Assembly: GCA_040879685.1 (NCBI GenBank)
Contig: JBBDJW010000005.1
Coordinates: 21,741-85,740 of the forward strand
Length of the DNA: 64,000 bases
Origin: Minisyncoccota bacterium
Lineage (GTDB): Bacteria > Patescibacteriota > Minisyncoccia > Phycocordibacterales > UBA2135
Direction of reading: 5' to 3'
This document shows positions 5,661-50,126 of this stretch, in pieces; positions within the stretch are counted from its first letter, which is position 1; each line of letters opens with the position of its first letter. The position numbers and the translations under genes are program-made. The notes below the pieces were generated by a model, which worked only from the letters and a program-made list of their open reading frames with translations, did no database searches and had not been told where the DNA came from.

Positions 5661-5897
5661 AAATAGTCCTTTGATATTCTTTGTAGAGTGTTTTTTATAA
5701 CCATAGAGCGCCCACCAGCTATTTCAAGGCTCTCTTAGAAAGTTTGTCTGGGAAGAGATTGAAGCCAACCCTCCTTCTCGGTGGAAACTAAAACGAAGAT
5801 GATGTATCGCGGGCTAGGTATCTGGAGGCTTTTTCTTTTAAATTTAAACGGCCTAAACCATTGCTTTTTTGAGGACTTTATGTAATACTAGGCAATT

Positions 5898-6104
5898 ATG
5901 TCAGTACGAATGAGGCATACGAGAGGCCACACAAAAAACAGGCGCTCTCACCATTTCTTAAAAGAACCGTGTCTTGCCACGTGCGGAAAGTGCGGAGAAA
6001 AGCACCTCTATCACAGAGCGTGTCTTTCTTGTGGTACCTACAAAGGTAAAGAAGTTCGTGTTTCTGCAAAGACTCGTACGAAGAAAGATGAGAAGAAGGC
6101 ATAA
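5898..6104 (+). CDS. rpmF: 50S ribosomal protein L32
   Basis: 68 aa, MSVRMRHTRGHTKNRRSHH...C..CG..HL.HRAC..CG.YKG zinc ribbon. Confidence 0.85.
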   Translation: MSVRMRHTRGHTKNRRSHHFLKEPCLATCGKCGEKHLYHRACLSCGTYKGKEVRVSAKTRTKKDEKKA

Positions 6105-6156
6105 TTTTCTTCTGTCACATTTATTGTTGAAGGGAAGAGGGAGTGCGCTTTTATAT

Positions 6157-7092
6157 ATGGCGAATAGGCACCTTTCAAGAAGTATTGTAATGCAGACCCT
6201 CTTTGAGTGGGATTTTATGCACTATGATACGACAAAAGCACAAGAAATCCTTGAGCGTAATGCTAAGGAGTTTGCTCCCGGATTGCCTCAAGAGGCACGT
6301 GCGGGAGATTTTTCATTTACAAAGAAACTTCTTGAAGGAATTCTTAAAAAACAAAAAACACTAGACTCTCTCATTGAGAAAGCAGCACCTGAATGGCCTC
6401 TTTCTAAAGTATCTATTGTTGACCGCAACGTACTTCGTATAGGTCTCTACGAACTTCTCTTTGGAGTGAAGGGAGAGGTACCTCCTAAGGTGGCAATTAA
6501 CGAAGCAATTGAACTTGCAAAAACGTTTAGCGGGCTCAATAGCGGAAAGTTTATTAATGGAGTGCTCGGTAGCGTCTATCGTGAGTTAGGTGAACCAGGA
6601 AAAAACGACAAGCCAGTAAAAAAGAACCACAACATTGACCCAGCGAAAATGCCTATTTATAAAAAGGGCGGGGCGGTTATCTACAGTATTCATGAAGGAG
6701 TTGTGCATCTCGCCCTTGTCCACGATATCTTTGGCCGTTGGACATTATCAAAAGGAGGGATTGAAACCATGGGTGACCAAAAGGAATTGACAGTAAAAAA
6801 AATTAAAGAGGAAATCGGTATTACTATTACAATAGAAGATACACTCGGAGAGAATGAATACATCGCCTCTGATCCTCAGGAAGGCAAGGTTCGCAAACAA
6901 GTAACCTACTATCTTGCGAGCGCCTCTTATCAAACGCTTACGCTTGGTGAGACCGGGGGACTTGATGATGTAAGATGGTTTCCACTTGCTGAAGTGCCAT
7001 CGTTGAGGATGTATGATGATATTTTGCCGATTTTAACAAAAGGCATTGAGAAGATAACAAAAAAGAAAAACCGTTCAGAAGAAAAAAAATAA
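6157..7092 (+). CDS. nusB: NusB antitermination factor fused to a C-terminal Nudix-fold-like domain with a degenerate Nudix box
   Basis: ATG at 6157 preceded by GGGAAGAGGGAG. The N-terminal 145 aa match NusB: [30 protein letters not shown] versus E. coli [29 protein letters not shown]. The C-terminal 165 aa look like a Nudix fold: [30 protein letters not shown] and [13 protein letters not shown]. The frame is continuous. The ORF-track start at 5974 overlaps rpmF and is rejected. Confidence 0.75.
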   Translation: [311 protein letters not shown]

Positions 7093-44784: not shown

Positions 44785-45753
44785 TTAAGATACTGCATTA
44801 GGGGCATTGCTACCGGAAAGCACAGCAAGAATATTTTCTGCTGCAAGCTTTGACATTTTTGAACGGGTTTCTTCGGTGGCAGAGGCGATATGCGGAGTTA
44901 CAATAACATTGGAAAGACTGGAGAGCCCTGCGGTGAGGTCCGGCTCATGCTCAAAAACATCAAGCGCCGCACCGCGAATATTTTTTCTCTCTAGCGCCTC
45001 AAAAAGTGCTTTTTCATCAATAACACCCCCTCGAGAAGTATTCACAAGGTATGCGGTTTTTTTCATTCTTGCAAGACGTTCTTTGTTGAGAAGATGTTTG
45101 GTAGAGTCCAAGAGAGGAATATGAAGCGACACAAAGTCTACTTGTTCAAGAAGGTCTTCTATATATTCACAGAACTCCGCTCCCACCTCTTCCTCTAAGT
45201 GCTCGTTCTTTTTTATATCATAGTAAAGCACCTTCATATCAAAGCCTCTCTTCCCATGATGCGCAACTCTCGCACCTATTCTTCCTGCCCCCACAATACC
45301 GAGCGTCTTTCCAGACAAATCGTTTCCTAAAAGTAAGAGAGGCGCCCAGCCTTCATATTTGCCTTCACGAACAAATAAATCCGCCTCAACGATTCTATGT
45401 GCTATCGCCAGCAACAATGCAAAGGTGTGCTCGGCAACAGTATTTGAGAGTACTTCGGGAGTATTTGAAATTACAATACCTCTCTTTTTTGCTTCTTCAA
45501 CATCAATGTTATCAAAACCAACAGCATAATTGGCAAATATCTTAACTTGCGGTGCCGCATCATATATCTGCCTGTCAATTTTATCGGTCAAAAGGCACAG
45601 TACCGCATCATAGGGTTCTTTTTGGAGTTCTGTAAGAAGTTCTTCCTTAGAGAGGACTCCTTCTTTTTTACTCACCACAACCTCATGACCAGAATCCCTC
45701 AGCAAGGCAATGCCGGAATTAGGAATGGTGCGTGTTACATAAATTTTTGCCAT
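44785..45753 (-). CDS. D-isomer-specific 2-hydroxyacid dehydrogenase family (glycerate/hydroxypyruvate/phosphoglycerate dehydrogenase-like)
   Basis: GIVGAGRIG NAD-binding motif and the catalytic R...E...H arrangement. 322 aa. Confidence 0.8.
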   Translation of the reverse strand: MAKIYVTRTIPNSGIALLRDSGHEVVVSKKEGVLSKEELLTELQKEPYDAVLCLLTDKIDRQIYDAAPQVKIFANYAVGFDNIDVEEAKKRGIVISNTPEVLSNTVAEHTFALLLAIAHRIVEADLFVREGKYEGWAPLLLLGNDLSGKTLGIVGAGRIGARVAHHGKRGFDMKVLYYDIKKNEHLEEEVGAEFCEYIEDLLEQVDFVSLHIPLLDSTKHLLNKERLARMKKTAYLVNTSRGGVIDEKALFEALERKNIRGAALDVFEHEPDLTAGLSSLSNVIVTPHIASATEETRSKMSKLAAENILAVLSGSNAPNAVS

Positions 45754-45762
45754 AGGTATCGG

Positions 45763-46614
45763 TTAATTATGAAATAATGCGATTCGCTGTGCAACAATCT
45801 CTTTGACATTGCTTCGCGCGCCGTCAAGAAGTTTATAAGGTGCCACTGTTTCCGTGTCGCGCTTCAGCGCGTCTTCAATACCGCTTCTCCACGCCTTCCT
45901 AATTTCCGTGTTTATATGCACCACGCTTATTCCTGCCTTGATGGCCTTTTTAAAATCTTCGTCACTCACCCCTGAACCGCCGTGAAGCACTAAAGGAACG
46001 CCTGCATCTTTTCTAATTGCTCTAATTCTTTCTATATCAAGATTTGGATTTTGTGCATTTTTTAGCATACCGTGAATATTCCCGACCGAGGGAGCAAGAA
46101 GATCAACTCCTGTCTTTTTTACAAATTCACGTGCTTGGTCGGGCGTTGTCATTTCCTCGCGGGTTACTCCTTCAGGAATTTCATCCAAAAGTTTTGACGA
46201 GGTCCCAATATATCCAAGCTCACCCTCTACAACCATATCGGGGTTAACACATTTTGCATAATCAACACATCGTTCGGTAATTTCACAATTCTTTTCAAAA
46301 GGAAGCTGTGCACCATCAAAGATAACCGCATCATAACCATTATCTGCCGCTCTCTTTACTCCTTCAAACGAGTAGGTGTGATCAGCATTGGCATAAATAG
46401 GATAGTTAAACTCTTCCCGTAAACTCTTTACAAGCGCTGTAAACTGCCGCTCTCCAATAAACTCTCTCTCGCCCTCTGATGTGCCAACAAGAACGGGAAC
46501 GCCTTGCTCTTGCGCGGCTTCAAAAATAGCCCAGAGAGCATCAATTGTTGAGATATTAAAGTGCCCCAAAGCATACTGTTCACTGTCTGCTTTTAAAATA
46601 TGTTCAAGCAACAT
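45763..46614 (-). CDS. fba: class II fructose-bisphosphate aldolase family
   Basis: LVLHGGSG and DHTYS motifs. 283 aa. The related tagatose-bisphosphate aldolases are not excluded. Confidence 0.75.
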   Translation of the reverse strand: MLLEHILKADSEQYALGHFNISTIDALWAIFEAAQEQGVPVLVGTSEGEREFIGERQFTALVKSLREEFNYPIYANADHTYSFEGVKRAADNGYDAVIFDGAQLPFEKNCEITERCVDYAKCVNPDMVVEGELGYIGTSSKLLDEIPEGVTREEMTTPDQAREFVKKTGVDLLAPSVGNIHGMLKNAQNPNLDIERIRAIRKDAGVPLVLHGGSGVSDEDFKKAIKAGISVVHINTEIRKAWRSGIEDALKRDTETVAPYKLLDGARSNVKEIVAQRIALFHN

Positions 46615-46703
46615 TATCTTAGTATAACACCTCGCCTGCGCGTACTCCAGATGTCTACGTGAGTATTTATTTTATGAAAAGATATTCTACTATCAAGAAA
46701 ATT

Positions 46704-46737
46704 CAAAAACCACCAAAATCTAGAAGATCTTGGTGGT
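46704..46737 (-). terminator. intrinsic terminator downstream of the 46765-47223 gene
   Basis: CCACCAA...TTGGTGG stem followed by UUUUU on the minus strand. Confidence 0.55.
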
Positions 46738-47288: not shown

Positions 47289-47362
47289 CCCATCTAGTAG
47301 TTTAATAATACCACCTCCTTTTGTAATGTACACCTCTAGGGTGAAAGGTTATACACAAATGG

Positions 47363-47431
47363 AAAATACCACCCGAAGGTGGTATTTTCCAGTGTACTTA
47401 TTTTATGCCCGGAGGCAAAAAATAAGTACAC
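47363..47431. repeat. two adjacent perfect hairpins with A/T flanks: AAAATACCACCcgaaGGTGGTATTTT (47363-47388) and GTGTACTTATTTT-N14-AAAATAAGTACAC (47392-47431)
   Basis: Seen directly. These are terminator-like, but no gene is immediately upstream on either strand. Confidence 0.6.
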
Positions 47432-47562
47432 CATGAGTATATAGATAGGATCTCTCTGTGTCAAATATAAAATCTTAAACCTGTGGAAAACTAAAAAATC
47501 CCCTTATTTTGCAGTAATTATTTCTTGTTGTTTAAACATTAAGTGTTGAGCATTTTTAAGTT

Positions 47563-47603
47563 AAAACCACCAGAATGGTGCCATTCTGGTGGTTTTTGAT
47601 TTT
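47563..47603. terminator. bidirectional intrinsic terminator aaaaCCACCAGAATGGtgCCATTCTGGTGGtttttgattttt
   Basis: 12-bp GC-rich stem with an A-run upstream and a T-run downstream. Confidence 0.7.
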
Positions 47604-47659: not shown

Positions 47660-47695
47660 CACACTAAAATAAAAACGAGGACCGGAGTCCTCGTT
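47660..47695 (-). terminator. intrinsic terminator of the repeat-protein gene (47715-48305)
   Basis: AACGAGGACcggaGTCCTCGTT, followed on the minus strand by UUUUUAUUUUA. Confidence 0.75.
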
Positions 47696-47714: not shown

Positions 47715-48305
47715 TTATGCGACGGCGGTGCAAGCGGGAAAGATGATGGGGTGCTCGTCTGTAAAAGAGCATCCGCATTCTTTCTCGTGGAGTGACATCA
47801 GTTCGTCACGATGGCGAATAAGGGCTTCAGCGAGCTTACGATCAGCTTCAGCGCCCCTCCGACCAGCTTCAGCGCGCTTACGATTAGCTTCATCACGCTC
47901 CCGACGAGCTTCATCGTACTTCCGCTCAGCTTCAGCGAGCCTCCGATGAGCTTCATTCCACTCCCGATCAGCTTCAATGAGTCTCCGCTGAGCTTCATCA
48001 CGCTCCCGATTAGCTTCATCGTACTTCCGCTCAGCTTCAGCGAGCTTACACACAGCATCTTCAACCTCAGAAGGAATCTCTCCCATAACCGGTTTGAAGA
48101 GCTGGAGACGGAGCTCTCGTTCGTCTACGAATTTTTCCACGATACACGCCACCCGCTCCTTGTAATCCCAGCAGAACTCAATCGCTTCTTCGTTGTGATG
48201 CACATGCCAGTACATACCGGGAGTGAACGTTTTGATACGTTCATCAACAAGTTCTGCTGTCTCCTGGCTGACGCCTTTCACCTCACTCCAGTTTATACTT
48301 TCCAT
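47715..48305 (-). CDS. hypothetical protein with a tandem charged-repeat region (8-aa R..xEAxR periodicity, plus a 35-aa duplication) between unique N- and C-terminal segments
   Basis: Translation ...LAEAERKYDEANRERDEAQRRLIEADREWNEAHRRLAEAERKYDEARRERDEANRKRAEAGRRGAEADRKLAEA... The start is chosen at MESINW (48305), which has a GAGAGAGAGAAG purine tract upstream. No homolog recognised. Confidence 0.6.
   Translation of the reverse strand: MESINWSEVKGVSQETAELVDERIKTFTPGMYWHVHHNEEAIEFCWDYKERVACIVEKFVDERELRLQLFKPVMGEIPSEVEDAVCKLAEAERKYDEANRERDEAQRRLIEADREWNEAHRRLAEAERKYDEARRERDEANRKRAEAGRRGAEADRKLAEALIRHRDELMSLHEKECGCSFTDEHPIIFPACTAVA
47820..48060. repeat. intragenic tandem DNA repeats: 24-nt units containing AGCTTCA, and a 105-nt duplication (53-nt cores at 47888-47940 and 47993-48045, 2 mismatches)
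   Basis: Seen directly. Both periodicities are multiples of 3, so the reading frame is preserved. Confidence 0.8.
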
Positions 48306-48427
48306 CTTCTCTCTCTCTTGTTTGTGAATCTGTACACAGATTGTCATAGTGGAGTGTTTTTGTCAACCCCTCTACAACTCATCCAACGTCTAATGTTGGA
48401 CATTTTGTTTCAGCATAGCTTCTTTCA

Positions 48428-49720
48428 TTAACGGGATAAAAATTTTCTCCCCCGAGACTTAGTGTGAAAGGCAAGCGCGAAGCGATGTGCCTCATAATTG
48501 GCAAGGAGGATAGCTTTTTCATAATGCTTCTTATAGAAAGCACTCCCTTTGATTTCACGAGGTTTATGGTGCTCGTCTTTAACAACACTCACAATAGGGA
48601 TAGACATATCGTGTGAAGCAATAATTTTCTCAGCCACACGCTTTTGAGCAACCCCGCCGTCAACAACAATTAAATCTGGAAGTGGCCACTCGTTGTGGCG
48701 CATACGGCGCGTTAAAATTTCGGCAAGCGCGCCCACATCATCACCTCCCTTTGCTTCACGAATACTAAACTTTCGATACGAAGACGTATCCGTCTCTCCA
48801 CCCACGACGACAACCATGACGCCACCAGTATCTTTGCCTCCAGTATGGGCCACATCATACCCCTCAATACGGAACGTGTTGTACTCTCTTCCATCAAATT
48901 TGCTGGGAAGAAGCGCAACATCTTGAATATGATTCAACGAAAAAATAGTTTTTTTAATTTCTCCAGCCCGCTCATATTCCCTCTCGCGCGCCGAGTGCTT
49001 CATTTCTTTCTCTAGCTTGCGTATGAGGGTCTTTTTCTTTCCGGAAAAGAACATCTCTATATTGCGAATCCGTTCACGATACACCTTTTTTTCTATCTCA
49101 CCGAGACATACGCCAGGACACAGGCCAATCTGATATGAAAAACACGGCCGTGCTTTCTCCTTGGGGGTGAGCTCCACTTTGGGAGTACATCTCTTGTCCC
49201 TGAACGGAAAAATTTTTCTTACAATACCGAGTGCTCTCTTTAAGGTTGTACCTTGCGGGAAGGGCCCAAAGAGGGAGCGAATTTTCCCTGTATCTTTTTG
49301 TTTCAAAAGATCTCGATGGCGCATCACCACAACCTGCGGAAACGCTTCTTTGGTAATAACAATATAATTGAAGCTCTTATCATCTTTCTCTTTTACATTA
49401 TATTTCGGCTGATACTTTTTTATTAAATATGCCTCTACAATAAGCGCCTCAAGGACTGAGTCTGTCTTTTTAATACTTATGTCATGTGCTTTTTCAACCA
49501 TCCGTAAAATAGCCGGGGAACGAGATTCTGGAAGCCCCGCACTAAAATAACTCCGTACACGATTGGAGAGAGAACCAGCCTTCCCAATATAGAGAACCTC
49601 CCTTCCCCGCACCCCTTCTTGAGAAGTTTTTTTACCAAGAAAAAAATACACGCCGGGCGTATGAGGAAGCTTTTTTTTCTGTAGTGCTTGAAGATTCATG
49701 GTATTTAGAGTATCATACAA
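48428..49720 (-). CDS. uvrC: excinuclease ABC subunit C, short form: GIY-YIG, Cys cluster, UVR domain and RNase H-like endonuclease domain are present, but no C-terminal (HhH)2 domain
   Basis: PGVYFFLGKK...VLYIGKAGSLSNRVRSYF (GIY-YIG), REYERAGEIKKTIFSL (UVR), RIEGYDVAHTGG...LIVVDGG (endonuclease domain), and the tail AHRFAL. Only 80 nt lie between it and the next gene. Confidence 0.8.
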   Translation of the reverse strand: MYDTLNTMNLQALQKKKLPHTPGVYFFLGKKTSQEGVRGREVLYIGKAGSLSNRVRSYFSAGLPESRSPAILRMVEKAHDISIKKTDSVLEALIVEAYLIKKYQPKYNVKEKDDKSFNYIVITKEAFPQVVVMRHRDLLKQKDTGKIRSLFGPFPQGTTLKRALGIVRKIFPFRDKRCTPKVELTPKEKARPCFSYQIGLCPGVCLGEIEKKVYRERIRNIEMFFSGKKKTLIRKLEKEMKHSAREREYERAGEIKKTIFSLNHIQDVALLPSKFDGREYNTFRIEGYDVAHTGGKDTGGVMVVVVGGETDTSSYRKFSIREAKGGDDVGALAEILTRRMRHNEWPLPDLIVVDGGVAQKRVAEKIIASHDMSIPIVSVVKDEHHKPREIKGSAFYKKHYEKAILLANYEAHRFALAFHTKSRGRKFLSR

Positions 49721-49766: not shown

Positions 49767-50126
49767 ATGTTAGAAAAATCTACTTCAAAAGCTTTTGAAG
49801 AAGCGGATTTGCCAGCTAATAAGGATAGGATTGAGAAAGCAATATGCAGATACATCCGCAAACAATTTGAAAAAATTGTTAAAAACACTTTTAACGAACA
49901 CGGAACACAAGATTCCGAACCTGCCCGCGAAGCTATCCGCCATCAACTCGACATGGTTGGAACTGCCGCAGACAGAGCCTTCTGGGATCTTTTTGAAGAA
50001 AAGGATGAGTTACCTGAAACTGAGTGGCATACTCTGTATAAATTTTCTCTCTGGACGGCTGAAAAAGAAAAACACCCATTCTATCAGAGAGTAAACTCGG
50101 AAAAAGCTCTTTGTGTTACTCTTTAG
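49767..50126 (+). CDS. hypothetical small protein (119 aa)
   Basis: Divergent from uvrC and convergent with uvrA. It has its own terminator and no recognisable motif. Confidence 0.45.
   Translation: MLEKSTSKAFEEADLPANKDRIEKAICRYIRKQFEKIVKNTFNEHGTQDSEPAREAIRHQLDMVGTAADRAFWDLFEEKDELPETEWHTLYKFSLWTAEKEKHPFYQRVNSEKALCVTL

Follow-up and report, generated by a model that had tools for sequence, protein, structure and literature searches.

Heptad-repeat coiled-coil proteins with copy-number variation are known in general. In the streptococcal M protein and in PspA, the number of heptads varies between close alleles, and a heptad with alanine at one core position is found in the alanine-zipper or Lpp-type proteins (PF11839) and in the antiparallel 'Alacoil' packing; alternating small (Ala) and large (Tyr/Trp/Leu) core residues fit tightly packed, often antiparallel helices. 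Within a stretch of 64,000 nucleotides (nt) from a Minisyncoccota bacterium (assembly GCA_040879685.1, contig JBBDJW010000005.1, positions 21,741 to 85,740; the whole stretch is referred to here as the window), we analyzed a gene for a heptad-repeat protein that lies downstream of uvrC on the minus strand and that an initial annotation, made from the sequence alone, had taken for an orphan. The supposed orphan proved to be the entry to a sizeable undescribed family, with more than 250 non-redundant metagenomic members and no curated model, and the window protein is very probably a member of this family that is of foreign origin. The family is largely phage-borne, its end modules are conserved, and anything from approximately 0 to more than 20 heptads makes up the rod between them. 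Neither these modules nor the strict heptad quantization nor the genomic association appears to have been described in the libraries and the literature searched. The gene and the parts of its product are located as follows.

47715..48305, minus strand: coding sequence of 196 amino acids (aa) with its stop codon at 47715-47717, from the list of open reading frames (ORFs) and the sequence
47715-48347, minus strand: alternative form of 210 aa from the upstream ATG at 48347, hypothetical protein WD003_00845 at NCBI, from a Candidatus Paceibacterota metagenome-assembled genome (MAG)
48057..48221, minus strand: conserved N-terminal module of 55 aa, PGMYWHVHHNEEAIEFCWDYKERVACIVEKFVDERELRLQLFKPVMGEIPSEVED, from translation, HMMER and column conservation, with the W and three His near-invariant in the family
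47811..48041, minus strand: heptad array of 11 × 21 nt (7 aa), x-E-A-x-R-x-x, from repeat and periodicity analyses
47736..47795, minus strand: conserved C-terminal His/Cys knuckle, SLHEKECGCSFTDEHPIIFP, a CxC variant of LHxxEC(P)xC(P)W[DN]GxTIF(P)

With the full protein as query, a word-indexed search retrieved nothing beyond the protein itself, whose cluster consists of one sequence, and a look-up of contigs by the exact sequence gave no record. As the search result would have wrongly confirmed the orphan status, an exhaustive scan with the N-terminal part was needed. Against 1.84e9 representative proteins, the N-terminal 88 residues gave 147 matches at E ≤ 1e-3 (HMMER, phmmer), nearly all 90-260 aa long, of which P0002 and P0139 were excluded because they are repetitive, of low complexity and judged spurious. 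A full-length family profile retrieved 258 proteins at E ≤ 1e-5, and 243 unique members carry both end motifs; the top matches that were looked up all belong to singleton or two-member metagenome clusters and are encoded on short contigs. The segments flanking the repeats, which had been regarded as unique, are the conserved parts of the family, the N-terminal one by virtue of these matches and the C-terminal one (ECGCSF...IIF) as a variant of a conserved motif.

The family consensus of the N-module reads G-[FLM]-[YF]-W-H-V-H-H-D-x-L-x-E-W-C-Y-D-Y-x-E-R-x-x-Y-I-x3-K-P-x2-E-x3-R-L-R-L-F-x-P-V-x-G-x-L-P, and that of the C-terminus A-L-H-x2-E-C-P-x-C-P-W-[DN]-G-x-T-I-F-P, with a variable central region between them. 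Column conservation reaches 98-100% for the W of W-H-x-H-H and for its H residues at motif offsets +2, +4 and +5, and the knuckle's H, C, C and G do not vary in its alignment (A6). The knuckle is of the CxxC type in 193 of the 243 members and of the CxC type, like that of the window protein, in the other 50. The window protein carries the N-module pattern G-x-[YF]-W-H-x-H-H...R...I...K...E...R-L-x-L (phmmer and family hidden Markov model, HMM) as well as the C-motif L-H-x2-[EQ]-C-x(1-2)-C, with an aromatic residue next and ...I/V-F after it. The family HMM matches its ORF with E = 1.4e-22, which is the sole match in the 64 kb, so that there is no paralogue in the window.

No known family had been recognized in the initial annotation, and the library searches agree, as there is no curated match in Pfam, PHROGs, NCBIfam or PADLOC. 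These libraries gave only coiled-coil noise over the repeat region (tape-measure, SMC, JetC, PspA and MscS_porin models), and short family members free of repeats have no match in any of the four. Searching the PDB with profiles of the N-module (alignment A2) and the C-knuckle (A6) yielded no match, and a literature search on the family found nothing relevant. An ORF arising by chance in repetitive DNA, which would not be a gene at all, might be suspected here, as the repeats also make long shadow ORFs in the other strand and in other frames (47811-48431, plus strand). This explanation is already refuted by the conserved non-repeat modules: the non-repeat N-terminal part alone finds the relatives listed above, the family HMM matches the ORF, and the C-terminal motif is conserved. 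The gene is real, and the earlier description of a genuine protein with in-frame tandem repeats in an intact ORF stands. The shadow ORFs, one of 206 aa in antisense (47811-48431, plus strand) and one of 88 aa in another frame (47798-48064, minus strand), have pseudo-repeats of their own and are artefacts of the 21-nt repeats, not genes.

The heptad array spans residues 103-179 of the 210-aa form. A unit of 24 nt or 8 aa had been proposed, but the measured unit is 21 nt or 7 aa: Tandem Repeats Finder reports a period of 21 with 10.7 copies, repeat finding recovered ten copies with every spacing exactly 21 nt, and the self-identity of the DNA by autocorrelation is 0.64 at offset 21 vs. 0.33 at offset 24. 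The word AGCTTCA, rightly noted before as recurring in the repeats, occurs 10 times and always 21 nt apart. In the heptad x-E-A-x-R-x-x, the E and the A are invariant and the R is present in 10 of the 11 copies. A near-exact duplication of 105 nt holds for the first 54 nt (50/54 identical) and not for the whole block, as the two 105-nt blocks agree at 85 positions (81%) and at 24 of 35 aa.

Across the 243 members, the distance from the N-motif to the C-motif ranges from 55 to 211 residues. It is congruent to 1 modulo 7 in 121 of them (chi-square p = 4e-52), with peaks at 85, 92, 99, 106, 113, 120, 127, and 134 that are all well populated, and no 14-residue periodicity was seen in the spacing of the motifs in this set. 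With a distance of 141, the window protein falls in the dominant phase class. The identity at offset 7 in its linker is 0.47, and strong offset-7 identity of the linker was found in 149 members (61%). Registered from the C-motif, the family heptad is approximately [KE]-A-[WR]-x-[AK]-[YL]-[DN], with a core of Ala (78%) at one position and Tyr/Leu at the other; the unit of the window protein, E-A-x-R-x-[YLW]-[DA], is a version of this heptad.

Of the close pairs of members, with end modules at least 90% and 85% identical (n = 52), 36 are unequal in length, in each case by one or more complete heptads (7 to 84 aa). P0086 and P0098 are 100% identical save for 11 heptads, and the two members of a tandem pair (L081), whose end modules are at least 90% identical, are 12 heptads apart. 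The expectation that the repeats would be prone to copy-number change is thus borne out by near-identical family members. Slippage or unequal recombination in 21-nt DNA repeats would be expected to yield just such whole-heptad differences between alleles. The resulting evolutionary signature is clean and unusual, with two conserved ends, a separation quantized in heptads, and 1 to 12 heptads of difference between otherwise identical alleles.

Structural modeling with AlphaFold2 (AF2) and the family alignment gave a monomer model with a predicted local distance difference test score (pLDDT) of 87.7 and a predicted template modeling score of 0.62, the pLDDT being 93-98 over the array. From its N- to its C-terminus, the model shows a small alpha/beta N-module, one uninterrupted helix at residues 93-178, a second, short helix and the knuckle. 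For the rod, a coiled coil is probable. An intramolecular hairpin is disfavoured by the Ala/aromatic core, by the single uninterrupted helix of the model and by the length steps of 7, not 14, and the same three features are compatible with an antiparallel homodimer.

We then considered where the genes of the family are located. The same architecture as in the window protein is encoded on 11 viral contigs of IMG/VR. Other members are encoded on contigs with a P22-type portal and a faint terminase match, with RecT, with ERF, with DNA polymerase A, a clamp-loader-like AAA protein, a RecA-like recombinase, flap endonuclease (FEN) and SbcCD-like genes, with DNA polymerase A and uracil-DNA glycosylase (UDG), or with tail genes and a weak match to Mu Gam; long runs of small ORFans are found on others. 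Annotated neighbours in the viral loci comprise PD-(D/E)XK exonucleases, a Sak4-like annealase, a DnaC-like loader, a Toprim primase and DUF5131. Neighbours were surveyed in 76 family loci by seed-based phmmer searches, with gaps taken between stop-to-stop reading frames and hence approximate. By this measure the family gene lies 4-12 nt from a Sak4-like gene, 24 nt from a PD-(D/E)XK exonuclease gene, 42-78 nt from a RecA-like recombinase gene and 111-211 nt from RecT. At one locus (L141), the order is a gp32-like single-stranded DNA-binding protein (SSB), two family copies and a RecA-like recombinase. Tandem family paralogues occur in at least six phage loci (L081 7185-8447, L084 7989-8941, L092 7458-8261, L141 5362-6236, L196, and L198).

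A second, cellular context that adjoins a DNA recombination gene is formed by five related loci of cellular type (L105, L129, L159, L193, and L205), in which the gene for a ComM-like Mg-chelatase ATPase is immediately followed by a co-oriented family gene, with a gap of approximately 90 nt where this was measured. DksA/TraR, M23/LysM peptidase and UPF0102 (YraN) genes are found around these comM-linked copies. Many family contigs come from 0.1-μm-filtered Hainich groundwater (Hain_H14/H41/H43/H51_01um). The 0.1-μm fraction of groundwater is rich in ultra-small bacteria of the candidate phyla radiation (CPR) and their phages, and this origin hints at the host range of the family.

The genomic setting also bears on the idea, voiced in the initial annotation, that repeats of this kind are typical of surface proteins. 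A secreted or surface protein of the M protein or PspA kind, subject to phase variation or antigenic change, would be in keeping with heptad repeats of variable copy number and with weak matches of the repeat region to the PspA and PgrA models. We consider this highly improbable: the NCBIfam model of PspA has a cut-off of 850 bits and scores 22.3 here, inspection of the N-terminus by eye (MESINWSEVKGVSQETAELVDERIK...; no predictor was run) reveals neither a hydrophobic signal sequence nor a lipobox or anchor, and the relatives lie inside phage replication modules.

The copy in the window stands apart from its surroundings. The GC content of the gene is 52.1% vs. 42.6 ± 1.8% in 43 ORFs of the window (z = 5.2), and the GC content at third codon positions of its non-repeat part is 55.8% vs. 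36.9 ± 3.7% (z = 5.1), above the window maximum of 45.1%. Its neighbours in the window are uvrA, uvrC, a gene for a Lipoprotein_15 protein and the ORFs 45763-46614 and 44785-45753 (housekeeping enzymes, judged by eye only); the phage early or replication-recombination context, which is typical of the family without defining it, is absent here. By composition and setting, the window copy appears as a solitary, foreign insertion, and the gene is probably a horizontally acquired, phage-type member of this undescribed family of small proteins. A scan with ARAGORN found no tRNA or tmRNA gene in the 64-kb window.

A solitary copy of foreign composition that has no partner genes, no recognizable promoter of its own and a protein cluster of one sequence could also be a functionless hitch-hiker, that is, a recent phage-derived remnant that is intact by chance and expressed only by read-through. 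This is conceivable, but we think it rather unlikely, as the ORF is intact and has kept both end modules and the dominant heptad phase. In addition, the family gene downstream of comM in five related loci of another lineage suggests that cellular copies can persist.

We therefore return to the horizontally acquired, phage-type gene, for whose product a three-part organization is proposed: an N-module of about 55 aa with the near-invariant W-H-x-H-H, a helical heptad array with a core of Ala and Tyr/Leu/Trp, and a knuckle of the form H-x3-C-x(1-2)-C. The rod would pair as a coiled coil, probably as an antiparallel homodimer. At each end of such a rod, the His-rich N-module of one chain would meet the His/Cys knuckle of the other, whatever the rod length. 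The conserved cluster of three His and the His-Cys2 knuckle suggest zinc binding, and contacts between N-module and knuckle might thus form Zn-binding heads. As the length changes only in whole heptads, these heads would assemble at any rod length. The complete picture of length-tunable rods, in which an antiparallel homodimer bears two composite His/Cys metal heads that are correct at any length, is a speculative one that we consider improbable as a whole. If it were true, the protein might be a bivalent accessory or inhibitor of RecT, Sak4, RecA-like proteins or ComM, used by phages and occasionally by CPR hosts, and the rapid gain and loss of heptads would be an adaptive trait in an arms race.

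With respect to function, the gene position suggests that in phages the protein may be an accessory of the recombination or replication machinery, for example a mediator, an adaptor or an inhibitor of a host nuclease. The recurrent adjacency to three non-homologous recombinase families, SSB, exonuclease and comM suggests a role in recombination. An accessory role in homologous recombination is put forward tentatively, and a Zn-binding coiled-coil accessory of recombination is the best lead at present. For the question about DNA repair raised in the initial annotation, the family is not simply unrelated to repair, and a broader link to DNA recombination is the best contextual lead. The recurrence beside three non-homologous recombinase families makes the protein a concrete candidate for an accessory factor that is still missing from the recombination systems of little-studied phages, which probably include phages of CPR bacteria.

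Several observations weigh against this interpretation. Recombinase or exonuclease adjacency is found in approximately six independent lineages only (11 of the 76 loci within 4 kb), a count without a background rate, and many other family loci show small ORFans only. The oligomeric state, antiparallel packing and metal binding are putative, and the AF2 model is that of a monomer. The length differences between near-identical metagenomic sequences may partly reflect collapse of repeats in short-read assembly. A tblastn search of 50,697 deposited phage genomes gave no family match, and all relatives are metagenomic. In the window, no phage gene was recognized beside the family gene, and no tRNA or att-like direct repeats were found flanking it. 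Finally, at L214/L215, the Type I Thoeris inhibitor Tad4 (5867-6613; PF25186, E = 1.3e-30) is encoded directly upstream of the family member P0047. The contig at this locus is from a MAG and otherwise looks cellular (DNA polymerase III gamma/tau, dCTP deaminase, and a sigma factor), and the locus may be a small phage-derived island.

The Tad4 neighbour leads to the main rival of the recombination-accessory role, an anti-defence or other host-takeover protein of phages that is unrelated to recombination and whose rod varies as a consequence of an arms race. The family genes are found in early regions of phages where small ORFans abound, and the tandem paralogue pairs and the fast change in length would fit such a function. 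Yet there is no match to any PADLOC model, Tad4 is the only anti-defence neighbour, and adjacency to recombinases recurs more often, so that we regard this rival as unlikely.

The initial annotation had further raised the question whether the protein works with UvrC, the product of a uvrC gene that it described as truncated. In UvrC (48428-49720, minus strand, 430 aa), the GIY-YIG, UVR and RNase H-like endonuclease domains are present and the (HhH)2 tail is absent. In 80 relatives from Patescibacteria (42-55% identity), UvrC ends -7 to +6 residues from the same position, and the short protein is therefore typical of the clade and not the result of a truncation. A UvrC of about 400-460 aa without the C-terminal (HhH)2 is apparently the standard form in these 80 Patescibacteria/Paceibacterota species representatives.

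A nucleotide-excision-repair accessory, co-transcribed with uvrC as an operon partner, would be consistent with the local arrangement. The ORF has the same orientation as uvrC and begins 80 nt (ATG 48347) or 122 nt (ATG 48305) downstream of it. The terminator scan found no minus-strand terminator between the two genes and one directly after the ORF, which agrees with the co-orientation and common terminator described before. Elsewhere, the family also adjoins other genes for DNA repair or recombination. Two further features of the region are relevant to the expression of the gene.

48306..48318, minus strand: purine-rich tract resembling a Shine-Dalgarno (SD) sequence, GAGAGAGAGAAG, directly 5' of the ATG at 48305; a possible SD element from reading of the sequence
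47674..47695, minus strand: strong hairpin and T-run resembling an intrinsic terminator, 20 nt past the stop codon, from the terminator scan

The minus-strand ORF is intact from 47715 to 48347 (210 aa), and initiation at the internal ATG 48305 would give the 196-aa form; no SD-like tract was seen upstream of ATG 48347 on reading the sequence. The scan of the region for terminators and promoters found no recognizable promoter belonging to the repeat-protein gene itself. Read-through from uvrC into the ORF is plausible, because no terminator lies between them and a strong one follows the ORF; the hairpin at 47674..47695 would end any such transcript. This plausible read-through transcription would be the sole thing that uvrC and the repeat-protein gene share.

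The synteny does not support a partnership. In the relatives, uvrA adjoins uvrC in 61 of the 80 loci, and uvrC is followed by genes for Ddl (26 loci, within two genes), SpoU methylase (12) and YqeY (4), with no homologue of the repeat protein in any of the 80. Conversely, uvrC and uvrA are both absent from the vicinity of the family gene in all 76 family loci; the sole uvrC match among the surveyed loci is in L131, which is not a family locus. The top matches of Foldseek in the PDB were GIY-YIG domains of UvrC, at E = 3.1-9.2 and a probability of ≤ 0.07. An identity as a GIY-YIG nuclease was rejected, as hhalign of the N-module alignment (A2) against 30 UvrC GIY-YIG domains gave a probability of 1.1%, and the GIY-YIG model of Pfam matched neither the window protein nor the family members. 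The missing synteny largely refutes the UvrC-partner explanation, which we consider hardly credible. Given its foreign composition, its absence in the 80 relatives and the absence of uvrC from the family loci, the repeat protein is not a dedicated UvrC partner and its gene is a lineage-specific insertion instead. For the window, a false lead is thereby removed, as uvrC is neither truncated nor has this protein as its partner.

Additional observations were made around the gene. The gap of 435 nt between uvrA and uvrC contains an ORF of 119 aa (49767-50126, plus strand) with a sub-threshold match to Syntaxin (E = 3.7e-4), for which no homologue was found in the loci of the 80 relatives. The intergenic region that follows the repeat-protein gene measures 490 nt and has a GC content of 35%. 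On its minus strand lies a near-consensus sigma-70-like promoter (TTGACA-17-TATACT, 11/12) at 47464..47436, with two perfect tandem hairpins (47431-47392 and 47391-47360) a few nt past it (minimum free energy -46.7 kcal/mol, z = -10.4 vs. shuffles) and a weak RNAI-like match in Rfam (E = 0.19) over 47352-47464. This part of the intergenic region, as judged from its sequence, may encode a small RNA of about 75 nt or be a tandem terminator. At 47563-47596, a perfect 16-bp palindromic hairpin between an A-run and a T-run resembles a bidirectional terminator, and an imperfect copy of its arm is present at 46700-46719.

Compared with known systems, the family shares single features with several described groups of proteins. 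Matches to PF11839 were found in 9 of 145 family members (E ≤ 0.01) and in the repeat region only, and the window protein has no match to this Alanine_zipper model. The PF11839 proteins lack the conserved end modules, whereas the family protein lacks a lipoprotein signal. From M protein and PspA the family differs in that its repeat lies between two conserved globular modules, in its phage early-gene context, and in that no signal for export or anchoring is seen by eye. The DksA/TraR zinc finger PF01258 (C4, CxxC-x17-CxxC) is not among the families matched by the members, and the window protein has a single CxC; PF01258 was encountered only in neighbouring genes (e.g., L193 3699-4067).

The combination of a long coiled coil, a C-P-x-C motif and a DNA-recombination context recalls the CxxC zinc hook of Rad50/SMC proteins. 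However, the family has no ATPase head, and a single helix carries its Cys motif C-terminally instead of an intramolecular antiparallel coiled coil carrying it at the apex. Homology to SMC/Rad50 was rejected, as the model matches are repeat noise far below the cut-offs, and the likeness is one of analogy only. YabA is likewise a small protein, with an N-terminal helical oligomerizer, a C-terminal His/Cys metal site and replication proteins as its target, but it lacks both the His-rich N-module and a tandem expansion of heptads, and a single match to its model was found, at noise level (E = 0.028, 15 bits where the cut-off is 249). In genomic position, the genes of the family resemble those of lambda Gam, P22 Abc/Arf and T4 UvsY, which also encode small, mostly helical proteins beside an annealase or recombinase, an exonuclease or an SSB.

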